Shown here: one piece after another, positions 150-38,670 of the stretch
Numbering within the stretch: position 1 is the stretch's first letter
How the letters are laid out: the number at the start of each line of letters is the position of its first letter
Program-made: the position numbers and the translations under genes
Notes under the pieces: generated by a model
Databases searched by the model: none
The model's input: the letters and a program-made list of their open reading frames with translations, nothing else
Told to the model about the DNA's origin: nothing
DNA from: a virus
Taxonomy: Duplodnaviria; Heunggongvirae; Uroviricota; Caudoviricetes
DNA length: 64,000 nt
Virus record (IMG/VR): IMGVR_UViG_3300033068_001655
Direction: 5' to 3' (one strand)

Positions 150-262
150 ATATAGAGTAGATATGGCAACACTGGAAAATCCAGTACTCTCCATATTAGC
201 AGTGAGCAAGGGAATCGAACCCTATACATTTAAACGTACGTGCTGCTTTCCAGGCAGACCCA
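150..262 (-). pseudogene. Degenerate tRNA fragments (tRNA-Ser-like 3' T-arm/acceptor piece joined to a tRNA 5'-flank/start piece)
   Basis: The minus strand reads agggttcgattccc ttgctcact (T-arm + 3' acceptor strand) with no matching 5' acceptor. It is followed by aatatggagag, which copies the 5' flank and first 6 nt of tRNA-Ser at 1263-1275. The 206-228 segment resembles the 3' end of that tRNA-Ser. Confidence 0.35.
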
Positions 263-276
263 ATCACCATCATGGC

Positions 277-1113
277 TTACTCACTATTTTTTATAATATA
301 ATTTATTGTACTTCTTGAGACATTAAAATGTTTTGCAATATCAATTTGTTTTTTACCTTCACTATACATTTTAATAACATCTTCTTTATTAACTCTATTG
401 TATTTTATACCTAATTCATTTTTATATTTTTTTATTATATCACTTATTGTACCATTTGAGGCACTAAAATGTTTTGCAATATCAATTTGTTTTTTACCTT
501 CACTATACATTTTAATAACTAAATCTCTATCAATTTTATGTTGTTTTTCTTTATAATTTATTACTTTAGAATAGATTTCATGTTTATACTTATTATAAAA
601 ACTTATATCAGAGTGTTCTAATACATGACAGTTTGCACACAAAACATCACACTTATTAATTTCATCCTTTATTAGTTTAGAAAGATCATATATAGAGTTG
701 AATCTTTCACTAATACTACCTATTGAAAATTCCTTTTCGTTAGGATCTCTATGATGAAATGTTAAACTAGCAGGACATTTATTGTAACCACATTTTATAC
801 ATTCACTTCCACCATATTCTAAGTATATTAATTTAGATCTACTTCTTTCATTATTATCCTCATTGTAATGATGTTCTCTATGACAATTTTGACACAGTAT
901 AATACATTTATCTAATTCATTTTTTATTTTTGATAATCTATAATTTTTTGATTCTCCAAACTCAAAATCTTTATTATTTTTATCAATATGATGAAATGTT
1001 AACTGAAATATATTATTGTTTTGACAATTTTGGCATACACCATCTTTATTGTTTAATAATATAATTTTTTTTGCATATTTTAGTATTTTCTGTAATTTTA
1101 ATTTTTTTTCCAT
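277..1113 (-). CDS. HNH homing endonuclease with two tandem HNH motifs and two tandem C-terminal HTH repeats
   Basis: Two copies of the C-x2-C...FHH(I/R)D...N...LC-x-NCH-x-x-H pattern (HNH fold). The C-terminus carries a duplicated DVIKMYSEGKKQIDIAKHF helix-turn-helix. Sits next to the tRNA cluster. Confidence 0.7.
   Translation of the reverse strand: MEKKLKLQKILKYAKKIILLNNKDGVCQNCQNNNIFQLTFHHIDKNNKDFEFGESKNYRLSKIKNELDKCIILCQNCHREHHYNEDNNERSRSKLIYLEYGGSECIKCGYNKCPASLTFHHRDPNEKEFSIGSISERFNSIYDLSKLIKDEINKCDVLCANCHVLEHSDISFYNKYKHEIYSKVINYKEKQHKIDRDLVIKMYSEGKKQIDIAKHFSASNGTISDIIKKYKNELGIKYNRVNKEDVIKMYSEGKKQIDIAKHFNVSRSTINYIIKNSE
323..521. repeat. Perfect 56-bp direct repeat (323-378 and 466-521) inside the HNH gene, encoding the duplicated HTH
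   Basis: aaaatgttttgcaatatcaatttgttttttaccttcactatacattttaataac occurs twice, 143 bp apart. Confidence 0.85.
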
Positions 1114-1181
1114 TATTTCGATTATTTTATTTATATATTAAATAAACTAATCGAACTTTTCCAAATATGGATTTTTTATAG

Positions 1182-1269
1182 AAGAGAGCGAGGGATTCGA
1201 ACCCTCAACCCAGATTCCTCCGAGCTACCACTTTTCAAGAGTGGCTCTTCATCCAACCAGATGCTCTCC
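1182..1269 (-). tRNA. tRNA-Ser (anticodon UGA), type II with long variable arm
   Basis: Minus strand: ggagagc-at-ctgg..., anticodon arm ccact/cttgaaa/agtgg, long variable arm, T arm gaggg ttcgaat ccctc, acceptor gctctct. No encoded CCA. Confidence 0.85.
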
Positions 1270-1275
1270 ATATTG

Positions 1276-1347
1276 TGATTCCAGAGGGATTCGAACCCCC
1301 ATCTGATCGTTCGTAGCGACCTGTCCTATCCATTGAACGATGGAACC
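1276..1347 (-). tRNA. tRNA-Arg (anticodon ACG)
   Basis: Minus strand: ggttcca..., anticodon arm ggtcg/ctacgaa/cgatc, T arm tgggg gttcgaat ccctc, acceptor tggaatc. Confidence 0.85.
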
Positions 1348-1391
1348 AATTAAAAACAAAAAACCCTTGAACTTTTTTGGTTCAAGGGTTT
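1348..1391 (-). terminator. Rho-independent terminator / strong hairpin (12-bp stem aaacccttgaac/gttcaagggttt, then T-run on minus strand)
   Basis: Perfect 12-bp inverted repeat with a 7-nt loop. The minus strand continues tttgtttttaatt. Lies between the embedded protein gene and tRNA-Arg/Ser. Confidence 0.5.
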
Positions 1392-1565
1392 CAAATAACT
1401 TTTTACTGAAAAATTATGAATACACAAGAACCTCCCTCAATTTACTTGAGCGACTAGACGAACTTGACGATGTACTGATAATTGTTTTCATATTATTTAT
1501 ATATTATATTTTATTTCTTTGTTTATACAAAATTACAAACTTTTTTTAATTTAACCTAATTTTTT

Positions 1566-2756
1566 TTAACTTCTTAATTGAAATGTACCATTTGTCTCAT
1601 TTAACAAGAAGTGTCTTTTATCTGGTTGTTGAGTATATAAAGTTGCTGTATTTCCTTTATCCTCAACATTAAACACCATAAATCTAAAACTATCTAAATA
1701 TGGAAATGGTTTATTCATATCCACTTTAATTTTAGTTGTCATTTGTTGATTATTATTACCATTATAGTGAGATAATTTATACTCATTACTCTCTGCCCAT
1801 TTCTTAAATAAGTTTTGAATATGATCATTAGCATAAACACGATCCATATATTTACCTTTATCAGTTTCCCAAAGTAAACAACGTCCTATCAATTTATCCT
1901 CTGCATTAGTAAGAATTAGCATCTTAACATTATTATCTATATTCGTATAGATGTCAAAGAAATCTTGACATTGATTTAATCTCATACAAGAATTGTTTAA
2001 TGTACCACAACCTTTTGCATAATTTGCTTCCAAATACCATTTCTTAACTTCTTCACCTTCAACAACTTTGAAGTATTCAAAAGCATTTCTATCAAATGCA
2101 TTGTTTGATTTATATAAATTGACAAAAGTTTCAATGTCTTTCGCGTTAAATTTAACGTGTTTGTTGTTTTTTTGAATTTCAGTTAAAACTTTATTAAGAA
2201 ATCTACCGAACTTAATCTCAGTTGATTTTGTAGTACTATCATCAATTGATGGTCTTAATGCACTTATTTGTCTAAGACTGTCTGCATGAAGAATAGAAAA
2301 TTCTTTCTCTTGACCAACAGAAGTTAAATGTATGATTTTATAATCACCTTCATATCTACTCCAAGCAGGATATTCTGCAACAATTTTAAATTTAACACCT
2401 TGTGTACTATCTCCTTGGTTAAACCTTCCGTTAAAAAATACGTTTTTTGAATAACGGTTTTCGTCATTTGCTTCAATTCCTTCTGCTTGTAACATTTGTT
2501 TTAATGCCACTCTATAGATTTCATGATTTAAACCAACTACGGTTGGATTAGGAAGTGTGTATAAAAAGTTATCTTTAGAGACTTTACTACTATAAAATTT
2601 TACAGTATCATCATCTTTACCTTTGTCTACTGATAAAAAATCAGTTATTTTATAAGAATCACTTAAAAAATAACTTAGAATGTCCATCTGTTCACCAGTT
2701 GTACATTGATTCTGAATTGTTCTGATTATACTATGAAGTTGTTCTCCTATTAACAT
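1566..2756 (-). CDS. Hypothetical protein embedded in the tRNA cluster; paralog of the 29036-30226 protein
   Basis: Long ORF. Track start 2861 overlaps the tRNA 3' end, so start was moved to internal ATG at 2756 (396 aa, same length as its paralog). Shared C-terminal block IGRCLLWETDKGKYMDRVY versus IGRALLWTLDDGRQLMDTIY. Function unknown. Confidence 0.6.
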   Translation of the reverse strand: MLIGEQLHSIIRTIQNQCTTGEQMDILSYFLSDSYKITDFLSVDKGKDDDTVKFYSSKVSKDNFLYTLPNPTVVGLNHEIYRVALKQMLQAEGIEANDENRYSKNVFFNGRFNQGDSTQGVKFKIVAEYPAWSRYEGDYKIIHLTSVGQEKEFSILHADSLRQISALRPSIDDSTTKSTEIKFGRFLNKVLTEIQKNNKHVKFNAKDIETFVNLYKSNNAFDRNAFEYFKVVEGEEVKKWYLEANYAKGCGTLNNSCMRLNQCQDFFDIYTNIDNNVKMLILTNAEDKLIGRCLLWETDKGKYMDRVYANDHIQNLFKKWAESNEYKLSHYNGNNNQQMTTKIKVDMNKPFPYLDSFRFMVFNVEDKGNTATLYTQQPDKRHFLLNETNGTFQLRS

Positions 2757-2830
2757 ATTTGCTTGGTTTTTATTACTCGACAAAAGTAATAATAAGTTAT
2801 GAGTTATACAAATAAAATTTGATTTTTTTG

Positions 2831-2963
2831 GTAGAAAGGTGGGACTCGAACCCACAACCACGGCTTTAAAAGAGCGAAGTAACTTATTTCATTGCTACTA
2901 AATTTCTTTAGAGAAAGACTGATTAAGTATGATTACGTGCTCTACCAATTGAGCTACTTTCTA
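2831..2963 (-). tRNA. tRNA gene with ~60-nt internal insertion (putative intron or disrupted tRNA); isotype undetermined
   Basis: The 5' half tagaaag-ta-gctc aattggta gagc and the 3' half gtggg ttcgagt cccac ctttcta are perfectly complementary acceptor halves. They are separated by ~60 extra nt, and no intact anticodon arm exists in either half. Confidence 0.5.
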
Positions 2964-2969
2964 CATTTG

Positions 2970-3044
2970 TGGAGACTCCAGTTATCGAAGCTGGGTCGCA
3001 AGGGCCCTTCCGCCCTCCGCTCTACCATTCTGAGCTAAATCTCC
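2970..3044 (-). tRNA. tRNA-like gene with non-canonical anticodon loop (6-nt ggaagg loop, or 8-nt if the closing pair is open)
   Basis: Acceptor ggagatt/agtctcc and D arm gctc agaatggta gagc are canonical, with a T arm. The anticodon region agggc ggaagg gccct lacks U33. Possible pseudogene. Confidence 0.45.
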
Positions 3045-3049
3045 ATTTG

Positions 3050-3122
3050 TGGAGCCGACGGGTTACGATCCCGTTCCTCTGGATTTTCAGTCCAGCGCAA
3101 TGACCACATCTGCCACAGCTCC
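3050..3122 (-). tRNA. tRNA-Phe (anticodon GAA)
   Basis: Acceptor ggagctg/cggctcc, anticodon arm ctgga/ctgaaaa/tccag, T arm acggg..cccgt. Confidence 0.8.
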
Positions 3123-3129
3123 AATTTTG

Positions 3130-3202
3130 GGTGTAAGACGGGACTCGAACCCGCAATACCTTGGTTCACAACCAAGTGCTTTGACCATTAAGCTACCTAC
3201 AC
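3130..3202 (-). tRNA. tRNA-His (anticodon GUG), no encoded G-1
   Basis: Acceptor gtgtagg/cttacac, discriminator C, anticodon arm cttgg/ttgtgaa/ccaag, T arm gcggg ttcgagt cccgt. Confidence 0.75.
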
Positions 3203-3204
3203 AG

Positions 3205-3279
3205 TGACCCCGGTGGGGCTCGAACCCACGACCCCCTGATTAAAAGTCAGGTGCTCTAAACCAACTGAGCTACGAAGTC
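3205..3279 (-). tRNA. tRNA-Lys (anticodon UUU)
   Basis: Acceptor gacttcg/cggggtc, D arm gctc agttggttta gagc, anticodon arm cctga/cttttaa/tcagg, T arm gtggg ttcgagc cccac. Confidence 0.85.
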
Positions 3280-3288
3280 AAATTTTTG

Positions 3289-3361
3289 TTCTCCCGGTAG
3301 GGCTCGAACCTACGATCCATGCATTAAGAGTGCGTTGCTTTACCAACTCAGCTACAAGAGA
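3289..3361 (-). tRNA. tRNA-Lys (anticodon CUU), one C·A mismatch in the anticodon stem
   Basis: Acceptor tctcttg/cgggaga, anticodon arm acgca/ctcttaa/tgcat, T arm gtagg ttcgagc cctac. Confidence 0.6.
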
Positions 3362-3370
3362 ATTTTCTTG

Positions 3371-3456
3371 TTCCCCCTACAGGACTCGAACCTGTGACCC
3401 ATCGTTTAAAAGACGATTGCTCTAAGCTTAACGCAAACCAACTGAGCTAAGAGGGA
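3371..3456 (-). tRNA. tRNA-Lys (UUU)-like with ~11-nt insertion in the D-loop
   Basis: Acceptor tccctct/aggggga; anticodon arm atcgt/cttttaa/acgat and T arm acagg ttcgagt cctgt are perfect. The D region gctc agttggtt-tgcgttaagct-ta gagc is ~11 nt too long (86 nt total). Confidence 0.55.
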
Positions 3457-3464
3457 ATATATTG

Positions 3465-3535
3465 CACGCCCAAAAGGATTCGAACCTTTATCAACGGTTT
3501 TGGAGACCGTCATGCTACCGTTGCACCATAGGCGT
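3465..3535 (-). tRNA. tRNA-Trp (anticodon CCA)
   Basis: Acceptor acgccta/tgggcgt, anticodon arm acggt/ctccaaa/accgt, T arm aaagg ttcgaat ccttt. Confidence 0.85.
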
Positions 3536-3541
3536 ATGTTG

Positions 3542-3613
3542 TGCGGACTATCGGAATCGAACCGATCTCTTAGGTGCTTCAAACCTACGCTAAACCGTCT
3601 CAGCTAAATCCGC
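3542..3613 (-). tRNA. tRNA-Phe-like (anticodon GAA; loop ttgaagc)
   Basis: Acceptor gcggatt/agtccgc, anticodon arm taggt/ttgaagc/accta, T arm atcgg ttcgatt ccgat. Confidence 0.6.
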
Positions 3614-3624
3614 ATTATATTTTG

Positions 3625-3697
3625 TGGACCCTCAGGGAATCGAGCCCTGTCCTTTGGATTTTCAGTCCAACGTACGCACCAGCTATACGAAAGGTCC
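3625..3697 (-). tRNA. tRNA-Phe (anticodon GAA), paralog of the 3050-3122 gene
   Basis: Acceptor ggacctt/agggtcc, anticodon arm ttgga/ctgaaaa/tccaa, T arm caggg ctcgatt ccctg. Confidence 0.75.
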
Positions 3698-3777
3698 ATT
3701 ATTATTTTGGGTGCCCCTTATCTAGTATTTCTACCACAGGTAATCTTATCATATTCGGATTAAACCGAACCCCCTTG

Positions 3778-3850
3778 GGTGAAAGACGGGGATCGAACCC
3801 GCGACATCCAGAACCACAATCTAGCGCTCTACCACTGAGCTACAATCACC
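3778..3850 (-). tRNA. tRNA-His (anticodon GUG) with genomically encoded G-1 opposite C73; two U·U mismatches in the acceptor stem
   Basis: g-gtgattg-ta-gctc agtggta gagc, anticodon arm ctaga/ttgtggt/tctgg, T arm gcggg ttcgatc cccgt, acceptor 3' ctttcac + C. Confidence 0.65.
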
Positions 3851-3859
3851 ATATATTCG

Positions 3860-3932
3860 CACAAGCCAAGGGAGTCGAACCCTTTCCATCCGAGGTTTTG
3901 GAGACCTGGTGCATACCATTATGCTGACCTGT
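3860..3932 (-). tRNA. Degenerate tRNA-Trp-like (anticodon CCA) gene
   Basis: Acceptor acaggtc/ggcttgt and T arm aaggg ttcgact ccctt are sound, with anticodon loop ctccaaa. However position 8 is A, the D-loop is 4 nt, there is a C·C mismatch in the anticodon stem and the variable loop is 7 nt. Likely pseudogene. Confidence 0.4.
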
Positions 3933-3941
3933 ATTTTTTTG

Positions 3942-4014
3942 TTCCCCCGATGGGCCTCGAACCCACTACTCCTTGGTTAAAAGCCAAGTGCCCGTCCACA
4001 TGAGCTTCGAAGGA
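3942..4014 (-). tRNA. tRNA-Lys (anticodon UUU), third copy
   Basis: Acceptor tccttcg/cggggga, anticodon arm cttgg/cttttaa/ccaag, T arm gtggg ttcgagg cccat. Position 8 is A. Confidence 0.65.
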
Positions 4015-4017
4015 TTA

Positions 4018-4428
4018 TTAGTATTTCATAATTTCTCTTATAAATTCATCAATTGTATTGAATTTATTTTTTTTATATAATTTTAATATTTTTATTTTAG
4101 ATATATTACCATTTTTACTTTTTCTTCTATTGATAGAATGTTTTAAATTTTCTTGTTGTGTCAGACATTCTAAATTATTAACATTATTATTTTGTCGGTC
4201 ACCATCTATATGATTAACTTGTAAATCTTCACTATAATTATTAACAAATGTCATTGCTACAATTCTGTGTACAAGAAGCGTCTTTGACTTTTTATTATTT
4301 GTTAGACTCACATCCATATATCCTCTATTATTTAATCTTACTCTCATTATTCTATTTGTCTTTGTATTTATTATGACACCATCCTCATTTATAGAATAAT
4401 TTTCAAATCCTTTAATTTTTTTAAACAT
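4018..4428 (-). CDS. HNH homing endonuclease (NUMOD4 + HNH_3 type)
   Basis: N-terminal GFENYSINEDGVI (NUMOD4-like) and LVHRIVAMTF...VNHIDGDRQNNNVNNLECLTQQENLKH (HNH_3). Bounds the 5' side of the tRNA island. Confidence 0.75.
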   Translation of the reverse strand: MFKKIKGFENYSINEDGVIINTKTNRIMRVRLNNRGYMDVSLTNNKKSKTLLVHRIVAMTFVNNYSEDLQVNHIDGDRQNNNVNNLECLTQQENLKHSINRRKSKNGNISKIKILKLYKKNKFNTIDEFIREIMKY

Positions 4429-4453
4429 AACAATTTATTTTTATTGTATATAT

Positions 4454-4480
4454 AAAAAAACCCGAACGCTTTTGTTCGGG
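4454..4480 (-). terminator. Rho-independent terminator (cccgaac/gttcggg stem, T7 run on minus strand)
   Basis: aaaaaaa cccgaac gctttt gttcggg. Downstream of the minus-strand run of small genes 5520-4727. Confidence 0.5.
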
Positions 4481-4726
4481 TTATATGTTATGTTTTTAAT
4501 CTCTATAATACTAATTTGGAGTTATACTCCATCAAAGTCTGAGAACGACATACTCATACATCCGAACTTGTGGCTAAACCACTTGAACGATTTACTAAAG
4601 CTTGTATGTTTAAAATTTGTTCTCATTATTGTATATATTAAAAGTTTATTCTTCCTTTTTGTTATTTTGTTATTTTTATAGTACAAAAGTAATAAAAGTT
4701 TACTTATCTACCAAATTTATTTTAAT

Positions 4727-5566: not shown

Positions 5567-5770
5567 ATGCCTGCTAAATCGAGACAGCAATTAAAATACA
5601 TATTTGCGATGCGTCGTAAATATAAAAATAAAAAAAGTGCTCCTAAACATATGAAGTGGGTATTTAACAAAGATTGGACCCACAATGTCAAAGCATCGGG
5701 GTTACCAACCAAAGTTAAAAATTTTCAAACCTATATATCCGAGAATTATGATGCTACTACTAAAAAGTAG
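5567..5770 (+). CDS. Small basic protein, DUF3008-like (MPAKS...KxxGLPxKV)
   Basis: MPAKSRQQLKYIF...KASGLPTKVK resembles the phage DUF3008 family from memory. Converges on and overlaps the tyrS 3' end by ~25 nt. Confidence 0.4.
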   Translation: MPAKSRQQLKYIFAMRRKYKNKKSAPKHMKWVFNKDWTHNVKASGLPTKVKNFQTYISENYDATTKK

Positions 5771-6999
5771 TTTTTCTTACCTCTCTGAACTATAATAAAT
5801 TTGTCATTTATCAAATCACCATCAGTTACGATGTAGTTATCTTCTCTTTTTATTTTATTTATTGCAACAGAGTTTTCTTTTAAGGCTCTTCTTGCTTCAC
5901 TAACAGATTTTAAGAACCCAGTTTTAAATAAAATATCAGTCATTGATATACCATTTACAATATCTTTCATTGGAATATTTGCCATTGGTAATCCACTAAA
6001 TATATCTAAAATTGTTTCATTATCAAGTGAATTTAAGTTACCGTTATTGAATAGAATGTTTGATGCTTCTACTGCTTTGTTAAACTCTTCTTCACCATGA
6101 ACCATTATAGTGATTTCTTTAGCCAATGTTTTTTGTAATAAAAACAAATGTTTGGCTTTATTGTGTTCTTCTATTAAATTATCAATAGTTTCTTTATCTA
6201 AAAATGTAAAGATTTTAATAAATCTTTCTGCATCTGCATCATCAGTACTTACCCAAAATTGGAAAAACTTGTAAACAGATGTTTTATCTTTATCTAACCA
6301 TATATTCCCACCTTCTGATTTACCAAATTTTGTACCATCAGCTTTTGTTAAAAGAGGACAAGTCATTGCAAATGCTTCTCTACCTGGGAACATCTTATGT
6401 ATCAATTCAGTACCGGTTGTTATATTACCCCATTGATCAGAACCACCCATTTGTAATAAACAGTTATGTTCTTTATTAAGGTGTAAGAAATCGTACCCTT
6501 GAATCAATTGGTAAGTAAACTCTGTGAAAGACATACCTTCACCTTCAATACGGTTTTTTACAGACTGTTTTGATAACATGTAATTTACGGTAATTCTTTT
6601 ACCAATGTCTCTTACAAAGTCTATAAAACTAAACTTTGACATCCAATCGTAGTTGTTAAGAACTGGTGTATCACCTAAAAATCTGGTTAAAGTATTTTTT
6701 ATACCTTCTACATTTTTATTAAGTATTTCTTCATCTAAAAGATTTCTTTCAGAAGATTTACCAGAAGGGTCACCGATCATACCAGTAGCACCACCGACAA
6801 CTGCGATTGGATTATGTCCAAAGTTCTTCATGTGTTTTAACAGAATTATTGGAACTAAACTACCTATATGTAGAGAATCTGACGTTGGGTCAAATCCAAT
6901 ATAAGCGGTGGTGGCTTCTTTTAAAAGTTGAGCCTCCGTTCCGGGTATCATATCATGTACTAACCCACGCCATTTTAATTCTTCTACTATATTTTTCAT
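5746..6999 (-). CDS. tyrS: Tyrosyl-tRNA synthetase, bacterial type with C-terminal S4 domain
   Basis: HIGH-class motif DPTSDSLHIGSLVP, GGSDQWGNI, KMSKS-equivalent KFGKS, C-terminal S4-like region. Confidence 0.9.
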   Translation of the reverse strand: MKNIVEELKWRGLVHDMIPGTEAQLLKEATTAYIGFDPTSDSLHIGSLVPIILLKHMKNFGHNPIAVVGGATGMIGDPSGKSSERNLLDEEILNKNVEGIKNTLTRFLGDTPVLNNYDWMSKFSFIDFVRDIGKRITVNYMLSKQSVKNRIEGEGMSFTEFTYQLIQGYDFLHLNKEHNCLLQMGGSDQWGNITTGTELIHKMFPGREAFAMTCPLLTKADGTKFGKSEGGNIWLDKDKTSVYKFFQFWVSTDDADAERFIKIFTFLDKETIDNLIEEHNKAKHLFLLQKTLAKEITIMVHGEEEFNKAVEASNILFNNGNLNSLDNETILDIFSGLPMANIPMKDIVNGISMTDILFKTGFLKSVSEARRALKENSVAINKIKREDNYIVTDGDLINDKFIIVQRGKKNYFLVVAS

Positions 7000-7403
7000 T
7001 ATGCTAATACTTCTTTAATTACTTCTGATACAACTTTTCTATCCACTTGTGCAGTAGCAAACTCTTTCATAATTCCACCAACATTGGTAATCCCTGATGC
7101 TACAAGTGCATTAACTTTTACAACAACATCTTCTCTTGTCATAGCAGCTGGAAGTAAAGCTTCAACCATTTCTAATTGAACTACAGACTCAGCATCACCA
7201 GAAGTTGCAATAACTTCTTTAAGAGATTTCGCAGTTTTATTAAGAATTTTAATTACTTCTGCATCAGAAAGACAATCTACTCCTGTATTTTTCTCAATAG
7301 TTTGGATCTCTCCTTTTACCACAGAAAGTAAGTTTTTTGCTACAGCATTTTTCTCTTTGAAAGCTGTCATGTAGTCTTTGCTAATTTGCTCTTTTAAATT
7401 CAT
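6999..7403 (-). CDS. yqeY: GatB/YqeY domain protein
   Basis: MNLKEQISKDYMTAFKEKN...LLSVVKGEI matches the YqeY family. Its stop overlaps the tyrS start (operon). Confidence 0.7.
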   Translation of the reverse strand: MNLKEQISKDYMTAFKEKNAVAKNLLSVVKGEIQTIEKNTGVDCLSDAEVIKILNKTAKSLKEVIATSGDAESVVQLEMVEALLPAAMTREDVVVKVNALVASGITNVGGIMKEFATAQVDRKVVSEVIKEVLA

Positions 7404-9256: not shown

Positions 9257-9601
9257 TAAGTATAAATCATTTTGTCTAGCTTCTAATTCTGTTAAAAGAA
9301 AAACACATTCTCTTCTTAAATCTTTAAGTTTTAAAAAATCTGAGGTATTACTTACTTTAGATAATTGATCGTTAAGATTATCAATCTCAATTTTTATCAT
9401 ATCTATCATTAAGCTCATTTCTTTGATTATATCACCTTTTAAATCAAGTACTAAGGATTTAAAATAAGGATTTATCATAATAATTCCTTTATAATCACTA
9501 GAAGTAAAATTCTTCATGATTCTTTTAAGTATTTCTATGACTTCATCCTCAGTACCTGAAAGGTGTAGTTTATCGAGATATTCTAATAAGCTTAACTTCA
9601 T
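9248..9601 (-). CDS. Hypothetical protein
   Basis: 117-aa ORF. Confidence 0.4.
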   Translation of the reverse strand: MKLSLLEYLDKLHLSGTEDEVIEILKRIMKNFTSSDYKGIIMINPYFKSLVLDLKGDIIKEMSLMIDMIKIEIDNLNDQLSKVSNTSDFLKLKDLRRECVFLLTELEARQNDLYLLF

Positions 9602-10452
9602 ATCATCTTTTTACATTTATATATAAGACTGCTACTAAATCCTTTTTTTAATATATCCTTGATTGAGTAACCATCTTTTAACAAACCTTTTACCAATTCT
9701 TTTTTATCAGATTTTAATAACTTATCTTCTATTCTATCCCACTTTCTAGACATTATTGGTAGATTTAAACGAACACATTGTTCTTTAATATCTTTAAGTA
9801 TATTATACTTTGATATAAAGATAATTGAACAATTTTCATATATTTTTGCATCTTTAGTTTCCTTAGTTAAATGAGTATAGAAATATTCTAATATAGAAGA
9901 CCAAGATTCATGACATTTAATTATCAATCTACCTTTTTTATTAATAGAGCCATCACCGTCAATAAACCCTATTATTAAACTAAATAATTGTTCATCATTT
10001 AACCAATTAGGTAGTATAGGAGGTATTTTAGTTTTATTGGATTTCCAATTAAAATCTCTAGTAATTTTATCTATAGTTATTTTATCAGATAAAACTACAC
10101 TAATTCTACTTTCATTTTCATATACTTTTACATGACCCAAATGATCTGTTATTTTTAATATATGTAATCTATCCTTAGTTGATATATTTATTTGTATTCT
10201 TTTATCTTTTGTAATATGTCCATCTGCTAACATAAACCCCAACCAATAACAAGAAATATTATCATATTCTATTAATTTGGAATATTTAAAACTATTATTG
10301 TTTTCATTAAAACTTCTTTTTATTTTAAAAAAATGTGCTTTCTTTTGTATATAGTTCCAAGATAATCCTAAATCAGTAATAATAGTTTCTTTACTTGAAG
10401 ATGGATAATTTTCTTTTAAATAGTTCTCTAACTTTGTTTTAGTGTGTCTCAT
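9598..10452 (-). CDS. LAGLIDADG homing endonuclease (double-motif, free-standing)
   Basis: YWLGFMLADGHI and LIIGFIDGDGSI motifs. TAATATATAGT motif ~20 nt upstream of the ATG. Confidence 0.8.
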   Translation of the reverse strand: MRHTKTKLENYLKENYPSSSKETIITDLGLSWNYIQKKAHFFKIKRSFNENNNSFKYSKLIEYDNISCYWLGFMLADGHITKDKRIQINISTKDRLHILKITDHLGHVKVYENESRISVVLSDKITIDKITRDFNWKSNKTKIPPILPNWLNDEQLFSLIIGFIDGDGSINKKGRLIIKCHESWSSILEYFYTHLTKETKDAKIYENCSIIFISKYNILKDIKEQCVRLNLPIMSRKWDRIEDKLLKSDKKELVKGLLKDGYSIKDILKKGFSSSLIYKCKKMI

Positions 10453-11816: not shown

Positions 11817-13055
11817 TTAAAATTCACAAGCAACACACTCACTAACCTCTGTTTTAGATAAAATATTATCAACCATTGCATTATGTCTATCATCTACTAT
11901 TTCTTTTCTTACTGTAAGTTCATAAAGTAAAGCAGTCGCATCATCAATTTCTTGATCAGGTTCAATCATATGTTTTTCCAATACAGAAAAAGCAATTGAC
12001 TTATCGTGTTTGTACCTTTCTAATAGTGATTTTATTATTTTAATTTGTTCAGTTAGTTTATATCCTCTTAGATTAAGAATTGTCCTTGGTAAAAACTTAA
12101 TTGTATTTGATAATAGCTTCATATCTTCTATATCAACTCCACCATCTACATAATCTTCATTTATAAATAAAGGTCTCAATTGATTCCATATATTTTTCAA
12201 TTCTTGATTATTATAAATGTTTCTTAAATAAAATAGTAAATCTTCACCTTTATGAATTGCTAGAAGATTGTTATCAATGAATACTTGTTCTTTTTTAGTT
12301 TTTAAAGTCCATAGATTCACATCTTTGTTGTATGTCTTTTTGACGTGTTCTATACAATCTAAATCTTGTTCTATTGTAAAATAGTTATTAAGTATTTTAT
12401 AATTGTTAAACATATTGAAATATCTATCTTGAAATCTAACTTTATAAACGTCTTGAAGCTGACGTACTAAAACATATTGAATAATATCTAATTCAAATAA
12501 GTTTAAATCAACTTTAAGTTCTTCTGATTTTTTTACAATTCTAATTGCTGTATGACAAGGTGTTTTTAAATTAGTTATTTTAAGCTTACCAGTCTTTAGA
12601 AATTTTTCAAATTCTGGTGTCCAATAAAACCTATCTTCTTCAATTGAATAACCAACTGCAGTACAGTTTATATCAAATGATTTGATAATAATTTCTGGAT
12701 TATGAGTATTTGATTTATAACTAACGTAGTTGAACATACCGTCGGTGGTTGACTCACAAATAGAGTAATAATTTTTAGCTCTGTCAATAAATCTAAGACC
12801 AGAGTAATCATCATACCAAACGTTTTCTTCATCTTCTTTAAATGAAAAGAAATACTCTTTTCTATCTTCGTTATAATTTTCTAAAAGTCCATCAAACAAA
12901 AAAACATCAATATCATTGATGATTGCTTTTGTACCGGAGACTTCCTCCCATATAAGATTTGATATAGAACCACCTGCAATAAACCCTCTTTTGGGTAGAC
13001 CCCATTGTGATTTTATTTTATTGATAGCATTCCTTGCTAATTGTTCAACATTCAT
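11817..13055 (-). CDS. Putative nucleotidyltransferase (Pol-beta superfamily fold)
   Basis: N-terminal GFIAGGSISNLIWEEVSGTKAIINDIDVFLF carries GS...DxD. Confidence 0.4.
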   Translation of the reverse strand: MNVEQLARNAINKIKSQWGLPKRGFIAGGSISNLIWEEVSGTKAIINDIDVFLFDGLLENYNEDRKEYFFSFKEDEENVWYDDYSGLRFIDRAKNYYSICESTTDGMFNYVSYKSNTHNPEIIIKSFDINCTAVGYSIEEDRFYWTPEFEKFLKTGKLKITNLKTPCHTAIRIVKKSEELKVDLNLFELDIIQYVLVRQLQDVYKVRFQDRYFNMFNNYKILNNYFTIEQDLDCIEHVKKTYNKDVNLWTLKTKKEQVFIDNNLLAIHKGEDLLFYLRNIYNNQELKNIWNQLRPLFINEDYVDGGVDIEDMKLLSNTIKFLPRTILNLRGYKLTEQIKIIKSLLERYKHDKSIAFSVLEKHMIEPDQEIDDATALLYELTVRKEIVDDRHNAMVDNILSKTEVSECVACEF

Positions 13056-26548: not shown

Positions 26549-27637
26549 ATGACAAACGAAATTTTAAACCCAGAATTAGGAAACCCAGATTTCGAGCTTT
26601 TATTCGAGGAAAAAAGCTATAGAAAGGGTAAAAATATGAGTGATAAAGATCTTGATGCTCTTTATAGCTCTATTAAATTAGAAGTGCCACAAGTAGGTAA
26701 TGTGGTTAGATCTAAATACCAAGGTATTATGGCAAATCAGTTTGTATTTAGCGTTGACGGATTCAAAGATGATGTTAGAGTTGAAGACAAACCAGGTGAA
26801 GCTAAATACCTTAAAAATTGCAACACTGGAGATGAGGTTGATGTTTTAATTACCGAGATAAATCACGGTCAATATTTCATCAAAGGAAGTATAGCTTCTT
26901 TATATGAGTCAAGAGCTCACGAAAACCTTAAATCTCTAGAGGAAGGAGAATCAGTAACTGCCTACGTTAGAGCACTTAACCCAGCTGGTTATGATGTTGA
27001 GATTACAAATGGAGGAGTAACTCTTCCAGGATTTATGCCAAATACCTTAGCAGGTATCAACAAACTTTACGACCCAACTTCAATTGTTGGAGATACGTTC
27101 CAAGTTATGATTGAGTCTTTCTCAGAACATGAAGGAACTTATATCGTAAGTCGTAGAAAATACTTACAAACTTTAATTCCAGAAGAAATTAGTAATCTTG
27201 AGTTTAATGTGTTGTATAGTGGTAGAGTAACTGGAACAACACCATTTGGTATCTTTGTCGAGTTCAACGAGTGTTTAACTGGTATGATTCACAAAGCAAA
27301 TGTGACTGAAGAGTGGCAAAACAGAATCTCCGAAATTAAACCAGGACAAGAGATTGAGTTCTTTATTAAAGAAATCATTAAGGAGAAAATTATCCTTACT
27401 CAAGTTCTGAGAGAAACACTTTGGGACACCATCAAAAACGGTCAATTGATCGATGGTAAAGTAAAAGATGTTAAGCAATTTGGAGCTTTAGTTATCTTAG
27501 ATGATGAAACAGTTGGATTAGTCCACACATCAGAAATGGAGAAACTTGGTAGAAAGCTTACATCTGGACAGGACATCAAAGTAAAAGTTTTATCAGTTGA
27601 TAGACAAAGTCGTAAAATTTTTCTTACAATTGGATAA
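26549..27637 (+). CDS. Multi-S1-domain RNA-binding protein (ribosomal protein S1-like)
   Basis: Three S1 repeats recognised, including C-terminal GKVKDVKQFGALVILDDETVGLVHTSEM...GQDIKVKVLSVDRQSRKIFLT. Confidence 0.7.
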   Translation: MTNEILNPELGNPDFELLFEEKSYRKGKNMSDKDLDALYSSIKLEVPQVGNVVRSKYQGIMANQFVFSVDGFKDDVRVEDKPGEAKYLKNCNTGDEVDVLITEINHGQYFIKGSIASLYESRAHENLKSLEEGESVTAYVRALNPAGYDVEITNGGVTLPGFMPNTLAGINKLYDPTSIVGDTFQVMIESFSEHEGTYIVSRRKYLQTLIPEEISNLEFNVLYSGRVTGTTPFGIFVEFNECLTGMIHKANVTEEWQNRISEIKPGQEIEFFIKEIIKEKIILTQVLRETLWDTIKNGQLIDGKVKDVKQFGALVILDDETVGLVHTSEMEKLGRKLTSGQDIKVKVLSVDRQSRKIFLTIG

Positions 27638-37926: not shown

Positions 37927-38670
37927 TTATTTATTTAGTTGGTTAAAAATTGTTTGCATTCCGTTTGTAGCAACATCTTCAATGTGATGAAAATACGGTA
38001 ATTTATAATCTGGTATATCATACATCAACATATCTATTTTAGAAGGTTCGATGTAATATACAGGAGTTTTAAAATCTGTTAAAAATGGAATTTCATTTGC
38101 AGGAGATACTTGTAATGATGTACCAACAATTATACAGAAGTCACATTCTTCTGCAGCTTTTACTGCAGTATTTACATCAGAACTATCTAATTCTTCACCA
38201 AACCATACAATGTGTGGTCGTAGTTGAGAACCAGTTTTCTGACATTTATCACCTATTTTTATTTCTCCGTATCCTATATCAATAATTGTATCTAATGGAC
38301 TTGTTTTATGTGTGTACATACAACCTCTTGCTTTAGTTAGTTCACCGTGTAAGTGAATAACATTGGTAGAACCTGCTCTTTCATGTAGGTCGTCAACATT
38401 CTGAGTAACTACTGTTACATCAAAATTTTCTTCTAGTTTGGCAATTAGTTCGTGTGCTAAGTTTGGCACAACATCTTTTAACTGTGCTCTTCTTTGATTA
38501 TAAAAATCTAAAACTAACTCTCGGTCTTTTCGCCATGCACCTGGTGTGGCGACATCTTCAATCCTATGGTTATTCCATAAGCTCTCGGTAGAATCTCTAA
38601 ATGTTTCGATTCCACTTTCTTTTGAAACTCCTGCTCCAGTAAATACTAATATTTTTTTTCTTTCATTCAT
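37927..38670 (-). CDS. Sir2-family NAD-dependent protein deacylase (CobB-like)
   Basis: FTGAGVSKESGIETFRD, QNVDDLHERAG, Cys zinc ribbon. Confidence 0.8.
   Translation of the reverse strand: MNERKKILVFTGAGVSKESGIETFRDSTESLWNNHRIEDVATPGAWRKDRELVLDFYNQRRAQLKDVVPNLAHELIAKLEENFDVTVVTQNVDDLHERAGSTNVIHLHGELTKARGCMYTHKTSPLDTIIDIGYGEIKIGDKCQKTGSQLRPHIVWFGEELDSSDVNTAVKAAEECDFCIIVGTSLQVSPANEIPFLTDFKTPVYYIEPSKIDMLMYDIPDYKLPYFHHIEDVATNGMQTIFNQLNK

Follow-up and report, generated by a model that had tools for sequence, protein, structure and literature searches.

The stretch of DNA analysed here, below called the window, comprises 64,000 nucleotides of a tailed phage (IMG/VR record IMGVR_UViG_3300033068_001655) and carries on its minus strand an island of transfer RNA (tRNA) genes, which starts around position 4691 with a promoter-like box and a short leader open reading frame (ORF) and runs to at least position 185. 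The region is AT-rich and its nearest GenBank records are the uncultured huge phages LR745206 (635 kb) and LR756502 (642 kb), whose similarity to it is confined to the tRNAs and the adjacent tyrosyl-tRNA synthetase (TyrRS) gene (about 72-77% identity). According to the relevant passages of Al-Shayeb et al. 2020 (PMC7162821), both are 'Mahaphage' genomes and among the largest of that study, and the predicted hosts of the largest Mahaphage members are Bacteroidetes. The genes around the island (among them those for TyrRS, a YqeY-like protein, a LAGLIDADG endonuclease, a NAD-dependent ligase, an S1-domain protein, Sir2, an SbcC-like protein and DnaJ) fit a huge phage, and some of the related contigs measure 400-640 kb. 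The region is best explained as a pair of tRNA operons of a Mahaphage-type huge phage. Relatives were taken from IMG/VR and from metagenome assemblies and are cited by their handles (L003, L004, L009-L013, L016-L022, L100-L106).

A first-pass annotation of the window had singled out the tRNA island and was largely right in what it observed, but it overlooked the units of leader ORF and terminator by which the island is organised. We consider this attenuator-like pair of leaders the most important feature of the region, as judged from its sequence: it appears to make the supply of tRNA demand-controlled.

The two tRNA blocks

The canonical tRNA genes of the island and one tRNA fragment, all on the minus strand and, unless another remark is given, called by ARAGORN and matched by Rfam, are the following.

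3941-4014, tRNA-Lys(UUU)
3859-3932, tRNA-Trp(CCA) type 1; identical sequence in L003, L013 and L017
3777-3849, tRNA-His(GUG) type 2; G encoded at position -1
3624-3697, tRNA-Phe(GAA) type 3
3541-3613, tRNA-Phe(GAA) type 1; orthologue in every related array containing the region
3464-3535, tRNA-Trp(CCA) type 4
3288-3361, tRNA-Lys(CUU)
3204-3279, tRNA-Lys(UUU) type 2, canonical
3129-3202, tRNA-His(GUG) type 1
3049-3122, tRNA-Phe(GAA) type 2
1275-1347, tRNA-Arg(ACG)
1181-1269, tRNA-Ser(UGA)
199-285, tRNA-Ser(GGA), intact; Rfam tRNA model 35.5 bits, ARAGORN in relaxed mode
185-192, 8-nt stub of tRNA-Ser(GCU), GGAGAGTA; recognised by comparison with the tRNA-Ser(GCU) of L016, at a deletion junction

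ARAGORN recovers 13 minus-strand tRNAs between 1181 and 4014, with which the Rfam tRNA matches agree. Two further genes, conserved but non-canonical (3370-3456 and 2830-2963), are found in its relaxed and intron modes. The total for 1181-4014 is 15 tRNA or tRNA-like genes plus one conserved 74-nt element (3698-3776) that is not a tRNA, where at least 16 tRNAs had been annotated. The anticodons read in the first pass (Ser-UGA, Arg-ACG, three Phe-GAA, two His-GUG, Lys-UUU, Lys-CUU and two Trp-CCA) are the ones that ARAGORN returns, but the Lys-UUU-type genes number four (3941-4014, 3204-3279, 3370-3456 and 2830-2963) instead of three. The cluster is as tight as described, with spacers of 1-10 nt and not 5-11 nt, and it is correct that no tRNA gene encodes the 3' CCA.

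The pieces next to the large endonuclease gene at the end of the island had been taken for fragments of tRNA-Ser. One of them is the intact tRNA-Ser(GGA), recovered in the same relaxed mode, whose first 9 nt overlap the 3' end of that endonuclease ORF and which has orthologues in L003, L004, L011, L013, L016 and L019; only the stub at 185-192 is a true fragment. The sequence downstream of the stub matches a distant part of L009.

The leader unit of the Lys/Trp/His/Phe block

Upstream of the first block lies a unit with the following parts, all on the minus strand.

4682-4691, promoter-like box TACTTTTGTA, containing an exact TAnnTTTG, about 57 nt upstream of leader ORF 1
4522-4626, leader ORF 1, 34 codons, MRTNFKHTSFSKSFKWFSHKFGCMSMSFSDFDGV followed by a stop; candidate regulatory codons 5-21 at 4564-4614
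4547-4568, antiterminator 5' strand (segment 2), AGUUCGGAUGUAUGAGUAUGUC, inside leader ORF 1 (codons 20-27)
4474-4494, antiterminator 3' strand (segment 3), ACAUAACAUAUAACCCGAAC, which includes the terminator 5' arm AACCCGAAC
4452-4482, intrinsic terminator 1, AACCCGAAC-AAAAGC-GUUCGGGUU and then U7; terminator scan match on the minus strand at 4482-4459

Codons 5-21 of leader 1 read F K H.. F. K. F K W F. H K F, so that 12 of these 17 codons specify Phe, Lys, His or Trp, and by this measure the ORF ranks first among the 384 small ATG-initiated ORFs of the window (binomial P = 6e-7). The block behind it has the same composition: in 14 related loci it contains 98 canonical tRNAs, every one of them for Lys, Trp, His or Phe (six further calls are non-canonical or mis-called). 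The leader is conserved in 13 distinct sequences that include deep lineages, and the promoter-like box is invariant in the eight relatives aligned there. A pattern built on the leader core has seven matches in IMG/VR, all on related phage contigs (45-508 kb), and all of these (five new and two already in hand) are located just upstream of Lys/Trp/Phe/His tRNA blocks.

Terminator 1 has a predicted energy of -13.7 kcal/mol (z = -4.9), and its stem carries a compensatory C-G to G-C change in L020, L011 and L013. Only about 10 nt separate the end of the U-run from the first tRNA in the relatives, so that read-through would enter the array directly. Segment 2 pairs with segment 3, and thereby with the terminator 5' arm. 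This antiterminator is the minimum-energy fold in five of six homologues when the terminator 3' arm is left out, it is formed by codons 19/21 to 27/29 in all 13 distinct sequences, and at -23.7 kcal/mol (z = -3.5) it is more stable than the terminator. Covariation is observed in the leader-1 antiterminator as well as in both terminators of the window. When ORFs and terminators of five deep lineages were combined in all 120 permutations, the cognate combination had the lowest total energy; in this comparison of cognate and non-cognate duplexes the 22 nt upstream of the terminator arm were decisive for leader 1, and a 6-nt version was uninformative.

The leader unit of the Arg/Ser block

The second block is preceded by a unit with a comparable layout, which follows on a protein-coding gene; all parts are again on the minus strand.

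2779-2788, promoter-like box TACTTTTGTC, upstream of the 396-aa gene
1566-2756, gene for a 396-aa protein, of which the C-terminal half has a GNAT-like fold
1526-1535, promoter-like box TAATTTTGTA (TACTTTTGTA in relatives), upstream of leader ORF 2
1414-1491, leader ORF 2, 25 codons, MKTIISTSSSSSSRSSKLREVLVYS followed by a stop; Ser/Arg run at 1444-1476
1434-1452, hairpin CGCUCAA-GUAAA-UUGAGGG inside leader 2, a candidate 1:2 or pause hairpin
1350-1392, intrinsic terminator 2, 13-bp stem GAAACCCUUGAAC..GUUCAAGGGUUUU and U-run; scan match on the minus strand at 1392-1360

Leader 2 contains the run STSSSSSSRSS, with ten Ser codons (AGU, UCG, UCA and UCU) and one Arg codon (CGC). With 11 of 17 codons for Ser or Arg it likewise ranks first among the same 384 ORFs (P = 2e-7). 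After the terminator come tRNA-Arg(ACG), tRNA-Ser(UGA) and tRNA-Ser(GGA), spanning 1347-199, and all 27 tRNAs of this block in 14 related loci are for Arg or Ser. The leader is conserved in 11 aligned relatives and is also present in the deep lineages L001 and L002. An in-frame insertion of 27 nt in L013 and a synonymous TCG-to-TCA change within the otherwise invariant Ser run may be taken as indirect signs that it is translated. The hairpin inside leader 2 is predicted in all homologues, with changes on both sides of the stem in L001 (CGCUCGA..UCGGGUG) and L002 (CGCUCAU..AUGAGUG), and terminator 2 (-17.5 kcal/mol, z = -4.9) occurs in three covarying stem variants among the relatives. The duplex comparison with 22 nt, decisive for leader 1, is not so for leader 2.

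Both the 396-aa gene and the terminator had been recorded as lying inside the island, the latter with a stem of 12 bp instead of 13. The 216-nt stretch between this gene and tRNA-Arg, in which leader 2 and its terminator lie, is 97% conserved and exceeds the protein gene in this respect. A search of viral contigs for relatives by way of the 396-aa protein found none.

Further leader units in the clade

Both leaders with their terminators are present in LR745206 and LR756502, where the regulatory residues are retained in leaders that diverge at other positions, as do the terminator sequences. In LR745206, three more tRNA clusters with the same layout lie within a 50-kb stretch (L108, i.e. 349001-399000), each opening with a leader and a terminator. 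In one, MNTITNIASYESYYEEGNLVRRNNYVVM is followed by Glu, Glu, Glu, Tyr, Glu and Tyr tRNAs; in another, MKNLNNISIAVIGNGAGAIREWLSYGI precedes Ile, Gly, Met and Gly tRNAs, with Gly and Ala further downstream; and in the third, MTTMNLNMTMNLTLNVVNITLCNIRPTEGSDLFREIVM precedes Asn, Arg, Leu, Val, Ile, Thr and Met tRNAs. The respective leaders are rich in Glu/Tyr, Ile/Gly/Ala/Met and Asn/Leu/Thr/Met/Val/Ile/Arg codons, matching the downstream tRNAs. Glu/Tyr and Ile/Gly/Ala units were also found on the unrelated metagenome contigs L051 and L076.

L108, 16029-16115, 17081-17164 and 38700-38816: leader-ORF units
L051, 742-837: leader-ORF unit
L076, 994-1065: leader-ORF unit

When the five leaders of LR745206 are assigned to its five blocks in all 120 possible ways, no other assignment scores as well as the cognate one, and every leader fits its own block better than any other. 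Significant antiterminators internal to the ORF are also predicted, with z = -2.7 for the Glu/Tyr and z = -4.8 for the Asn/Leu/Thr leader. Taken together, the occurrence of leader units with matching tRNAs at these further loci indicates that the device is probably general in this phage clade.

An exact TAnnTTTG box lies upstream of most units, and the unit on L051 has a near match. We take this box to resemble the -7 promoter element of Bacteroidota. A scan for sigma-70-type promoters showed no enrichment (26 matches, 26.8 expected), which is consistent with a different type of promoter.

Proposed attenuation of the tRNA operons

We propose that these units induce phage tRNA operons by ribosome-mediated transcription attenuation when the cognate charged tRNAs are scarce, a reading to which we assign a probability of roughly three in four. 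The operons share one layout, in which a promoter-like box, a short leader ORF and then an intrinsic terminator precede the tRNA genes, and the leader codons are dominated by the amino acids of the downstream tRNAs; the control would be of the trp/his/pheST type. As long as cognate charged tRNAs are plentiful, the ribosome would run through the leader and occupy or pass segment 2, upon which the terminator hairpin could form and transcription would stop ahead of the tRNA genes. When those tRNAs become scarce (possible causes are host defences that cleave tRNA, host shut-off, or the codon demand of the phage itself), the ribosome would stall on the regulatory codons, segment 2 would pair with the terminator 5' arm, and the polymerase would read through and make the tRNA block. 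The phage tRNAs would then relieve the stall, which would close a negative feedback loop. Leader translation, stall-dependent read-through and the physiological trigger are predictions of this model.

Like the leaders trpL, hisL, pheL, pheM (of pheST), thrL and leuL, the units described here combine a short ORF with clustered cognate codons and an intrinsic terminator between the leader and the genes, and in leader 1, the Glu/Tyr leader and the Asn/Leu/Thr leader there is in addition a mutually exclusive antiterminator that uses the terminator 5' arm. In the classical attenuators the antiterminator segment is located at or after the end of the regulatory codons, and the arrangement is the same here. 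The classical members regulate biosynthesis or synthetase genes, whereas here the downstream genes are tRNAs, by which the units are set apart from the described leader families and tRNA supply instead of amino-acid supply would be controlled. Furthermore, four to seven specificities are interleaved in the leader in place of a run of one, the units are encoded by a virus, and leader 2 differs in having no established antiterminator. None of the Rfam leader families reaches its threshold on these units, the best being His_leader with 25 bits against 49.

The arrays of huge phages treated in the tRNA passages of the huge-phage study (PMC7162821) resemble the present one in their many tRNAs, a neighbouring TyrRS and an S1-domain protein. 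These passages give counts of tRNAs and synthetases, and within them there is no mention of introns, homing endonucleases, leader ORFs, attenuators, a leader-based grouping or non-canonical tRNAs. Full-text literature searches yielded no description of attenuation-controlled tRNA operons. To our knowledge, there is no described example of attenuation that feeds back on tRNA supply.

Several points weigh against the attenuation model. The evidence is computational throughout. In leader 1 the stop codon lies 22 nt past segment 2, so that a ribosome at the stop would not cover this segment, and termination behind an unstalled ribosome would have to depend on timing and kinetics or on local refolding. 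Folding of the naked RNA favours the leader-1 antiterminator, and the default without translation could thus be read-through. Ser codons are conserved within leader 1 as well, though Ser tRNAs belong to the second block. For leader 2 the antiterminator pairing is part of the minimum-energy fold in five of six homologues, but its energy is no better than that of shuffled sequences, and the duplex energy of the Ile/Gly/Ala antiterminator does not surpass its shuffles either. In the tRNA arrays of three further phage contigs (L006-L008) we found nothing comparable to these leaders. Finally, extra tRNA does not help when the amino acid itself is limiting. The loop would be useful only if tRNA is what limits, and it fits tRNA-depleting host defences or phage codon demand. 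A trigger by tRNA shortage also fits the many diverged and structurally altered tRNAs of the block.

Non-canonical tRNAs and a 74-nt element

Four elements of the first block depart from the canonical tRNA form, all on the minus strand.

3370-3456, non-canonical tRNA-Lys(UUU), 87 nt, with an 11-nt insertion in the D-loop; ARAGORN relaxed, Rfam 35.7 bits
2969-3044, Phe-like tRNA with the 8-nt anticodon loop cGGAAGGg, without U33; ARAGORN anticodon 'gaag'
2830-2963, 'interrupted' tRNA-like gene, 134 nt; ARAGORN relaxed and intron modes
3698-3776, conserved 74-nt element, not a recognisable tRNA, directly after tRNA-His type 2

The D-loop-expanded tRNA-Lys is 92-97% identical in six relatives and 79% in L020. 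The gene at 2969-3044 is one of two that had been left unassignable in the first pass. It is kept in L013 (5716-5790), where the loop reads tGGAAGGa with covariation of the closing pair, and in the deep lineage L104 (8747-8821, acGGAAaa), while a search of viral contigs with a sequence pattern for 8-nt-loop tRNAs gave no match. This GGAA-loop tRNA may act as a +1 frameshift suppressor at UUCC or as a decoy, or it may have no part in decoding.

The interrupted gene has a complete acceptor stem, D arm and T arm, and its structured insert of 62 nt comes after the D arm. The anticodon-like loop reads CUUUUAA (Lys) in the window and CUGUUAA (Asn) in the aligned relatives. The gene, insert included, is 92-97% identical in eight full-length relatives, with compensatory changes in the acceptor stem, and in the relatives examined it is the final tRNA-type gene of the block. 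On inspection, the aligned inserts show a hairpin that varies in length through indels, which apparently keep the pairing. Excision of the 62 nt between ACG and GCU would yield a perfect anticodon stem. Two kinds of intron were considered for this insert and rejected. A group I intron found no Rfam match at E <= 1, and 62 nt is, as far as we know, far below the length of any group I intron. For an archaeal bulge-helix-bulge intron, manual inspection placed the ACG|...|GCU boundaries, the only ones with a perfect anticodon stem, outside the bulges of the predicted fold. The insert may be an intron that is spliced by another route or an extra arm, or the gene may serve as a decoy.

The 74-nt element is 93% identical in L020 and 92% in L011, in both of which it also follows tRNA-His type 2. 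It has no ARAGORN or Rfam call and fits none of the RNA classes that were tried.

Some Lys, His, Trp and Arg tRNAs of relatives are 82-89 nt in length and bear a long variable arm, the stem of which covaries (for instance GGAT/ATCC, TACC/GGTA and GAGA/TCTC). A class-II-like long variable arm is normally restricted to Leu, Ser, Tyr and Sec tRNAs.

L001, 7697-7966: long-variable-arm tRNAs
L002, 6290-6555: long-variable-arm tRNAs
L003, 12716-12804: long-variable-arm tRNA
L009, 1624-1710: long-variable-arm tRNA
L016, 3528-3614: long-variable-arm tRNA
L019, 3-89 and 846-934: long-variable-arm tRNAs

The two tRNA-His genes of the window differ in their 5' context, with a G at position -1 opposite C73 in one and a U in the other, which may reflect a different maturation or a different recognition by histidyl-tRNA synthetase.

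Old paralogues, exchanged cassettes and homing endonucleases

Within the window, copies with the same anticodon are 58-74% identical to one another, and according to clustering each of them has a closer orthologue (at least 82%) in other phages, from which it follows that they are old paralogues and not recent tandem copies. Near-identical repeated units, as expected from a recent amplification of the SegB type, were not found, and the order of the copies is not repeated. In nine loci we distinguish 14 Lys, 8 Phe, 9 His and 6 Trp sequence types in differing orders. The flanks of the island are collinear between genomes at 85-92% identity, and the tRNA block in between is rearranged cassette by cassette. 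Judged by these alignments, the tRNA genes are old diverged paralogues and odd variants that are exchanged as cassettes between related phages, a shuffling that fits endonuclease-driven recombination by analogy with T4/T6 SegB. Pseudogene decay of the odd tRNAs was considered as well, and is ruled out by their 92-97% conservation and the compensatory acceptor-stem change. The suggestions in the first-pass annotation of segmental tandem duplication and of decaying copies are hence not borne out.

Two endonuclease genes interrupt the island on the minus strand.

4018-4428, free-standing homing endonuclease gene with NUMOD4 and HNH_3 domains; Pfam and PHROG matches
277-1113, double-HNH endonuclease gene with two HNH modules and two helix-turn-helix repeats; Pfam and PHROG matches

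That both are HNH endonucleases had been recognised, and the Pfam and PHROG matches bear this out; that they bound the island does not hold, given its extent from about 4691 to at least 185. The NUMOD4-HNH cassette (about 4019-4446, some 430 nt) is cleanly inserted and separates terminator 1 from the first tRNA. All seven relatives aligned across the site lack it, and L103 and L105 have a different HNH gene there. The double-HNH gene is inserted between tRNA-Ser(UGA) and tRNA-Ser(GGA). It occupies the same site in L017 (93% nucleotide identity), L016 (83%) and L009, has left its last 116 nt in L013, and is absent in L011, L003, L004 and L020. At both sites there are thus relatives with the same junctions and no HNH gene, and this the first-pass annotation itself had named as an outcome that would speak against it. 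In other relatives different endonuclease genes occupy other spacers. At one array position L003 (12955-13992) and L004 (13012-13860) have different nuclease domains, a zinc-finger plus Vsr/DUF559-like domain in one and HNH in the other, joined to a near-identical C-terminal helix-turn-helix domain, a case of domain swapping in nature among homing endonucleases. Each of the two ORFs extends into the 5' end of the tRNA-Phe that follows.

As in SegB- and Mob-like genes, a recognisable nuclease domain is thus combined with an intergenic insertion that is polymorphic among close relatives at the same site, and on the sequence comparisons the HNH genes are best described as selfish passengers that were inserted in spacers and not as boundaries of the island. 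Free-standing homing endonucleases in phage tRNA clusters are known from T4/T6 SegB (PMC2330249, PMC13096335). The likeness with SegB and with the Mob HNH genes of T4 lies in the location of the genes in spacers, their presence or absence among close relatives and the mosaic of flanking tRNA alleles. In contrast to the GIY-YIG enzyme SegB, the genes here are of the HNH and NUMOD4-HNH type and near-identical tandem amplification is lacking. By this analogy the endonuclease component behaves as already known for phage tRNA clusters. What remains of the proposed remodelling by homing endonucleases is that HNH insertions are polymorphic and cassettes are shuffled.

Alternative explanations

The island could alternatively be viewed as a tRNA array that was expanded by segmental tandem duplication and remodelled by endonucleases, with decaying copies and with small ORFs and terminators that are incidental. 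The two polymorphic HNH genes and the shuffled cassette order speak for such a history, as does the presence of identical tRNA alleles in genomes whose neighbouring proteins are only 56-67% identical, and endonuclease-driven inheritance and amplification are documented for T4/T6 SegB (PMC2330249, PMC13096335). It is at odds, however, with the divergence of the paralogues, with the conservation and compensatory change in the odd tRNAs and with relatives that keep the same junctions without HNH genes, and it leaves unexplained why, across the 14 loci, the first block is restricted to Lys, Trp, His and Phe and the second to Arg and Ser, and why leader and tRNA composition track each other in at least seven unit types. 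As a complete account it is largely refuted, and we consider it unlikely to be the better description of the island. Still more improbable in our estimation is that the leader ORFs encode small functional peptides or arose by chance, that the hairpins are terminators at operon ends, and that the tRNAs are expressed from their own promoters or by constitutive read-through and serve codon compensation. Selection on the peptide is conceivable, given that leader 1 conserves a motif FSK..KWFS including its Ser residues; leader 2 and the Ile/Gly/Ala leader are without a significant antiterminator, and Lys and Phe codons are common in this AT-rich genome. But this reading would have to account for a composition match in five unit types of one genome, the best of 120 assignments, and again on other contigs, and for a segment internal to the ORF that co-varies with the terminator arm, while the gap of about 10 nt between U-run and first tRNA in the relatives leaves no room for a promoter. 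Codon compensation, also suggested in the first-pass annotation for an AT-rich genome, is not supported, as the tRNAs for His and Trp, which at 1.4% and 1.3% are the rarest residues, are multi-copy.

A further explanation would complement attenuation, namely that the phage keeps a stock of diverged and altered Lys, His, Trp, Phe, Arg and Ser tRNAs that resist nucleases or act as decoys, these being the isotypes targeted by tRNA-cleaving defences of the host. The alterations comprise additional hairpins in the D-loop, the variable arm or the interior, and modified anticodon loops. Phage tRNAs are known to evade, or replenish against, PrrC, VapC, colicins, PARIS, retron effectors and Septu (PMC10264068, PMC11464382, PMC11555353, PMC13096335). 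The precedents of T5 tRNA-Lys against PARIS and T5 tRNA-Tyr against a retron effector, together with the hypothesis of anticodon-loop variants, share with the present case that the phage carries copies of nuclease-target tRNAs, notably Lys, and that variants are non-canonical. They differ in that the variation here is one of architecture (extra arms, 8-nt loops, a 62-nt insert) and of many paralogues, and in that expression appears conditional on tRNA shortage. In line with such a role are the numerous sequence types in the nine loci, the recurrence of extra arms (the 11-nt insert in the Lys D-loop, and the covarying long variable arms on Lys, His, Trp and Arg tRNAs of relatives) and the conservation of both the 8-nt-loop and the interrupted tRNA; moreover, an attenuator that responds to shortage makes most sense if tRNA and not the amino acid is limiting. 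On the other hand, the Lys and Trp copies have canonical anticodon loops, and charging, nuclease resistance and expression of the variants are predicted properties. We regard counter-defence as a tentative addition to attenuation of the tRNA operons, with somewhat less than even chances. More tentative still is a combination of both, a tRNA 'homeostat' of huge phages in which leader-gated operons, comprising at least many of the tRNA genes, would fire on tRNA loss as an inducible counter-measure against tRNA-cleaving host immunity. Each leader peptide would sense codon by codon if its charged tRNAs are still supplied, and the aberrant tRNAs (those with extra D-loop or variable arms, the 8-nt GGAA loop or the 62-nt insert) would be purpose-built resistant substitutes, decoys or recoding tRNAs.

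Neighbouring genes

Outside the island the window contains the following genes of related interest.

5746-6999, TyrRS, neighbour of the tRNA island
9598-10452, minus strand, LAGLIDADG endonuclease gene
26549-27637, plus strand, S1-domain (ribosomal protein S1-like) protein
37927-38670, minus strand, Sir2-family protein

TyrRS and the YqeY-like protein (together 5746-7403, minus strand) adjoin the island, yet no tRNA-Tyr occurs in the window; LR745206 carries its Tyr tRNAs elsewhere, in the Glu/Tyr operon. LR756502 has an ORF resembling tryptophanyl-tRNA synthetase inside its tRNA array (L001, 6651-7370). A very basic ORF of 67 aa (5567-5770, plus strand) is conserved, antisense to and overlapping the 3' end of the TyrRS gene, and every relative with gene calls in this region has it annotated as a gene. 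The 412-aa nucleotidyltransferase-like ORF at 11817-13055 was considered as a CCA-adding enzyme and not retained, with a weak Pfam match and no relative found among solved structures.

Implications

If the attenuation model is true, a virus senses whether specific charged tRNAs are available and turns on tRNA genes of its own accordingly, which would put a known attenuation mechanism to a new use, i.e. feedback on tRNA supply. The grouping of the tRNA genes into Lys/Trp/His/Phe, Arg/Ser, Glu/Tyr and Ile/Gly/Ala sets would be explained by one leader for each set. As a leader would state which tRNAs the phage 'expects' to become limiting, it could point to the targets of tRNA-directed defences in uncultured hosts, and the question of why phages carry tRNAs would become testable. 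The conserved non-canonical tRNAs are candidates for new tRNA biology, and the units themselves would be compact natural sensors of tRNA levels that may be reused.

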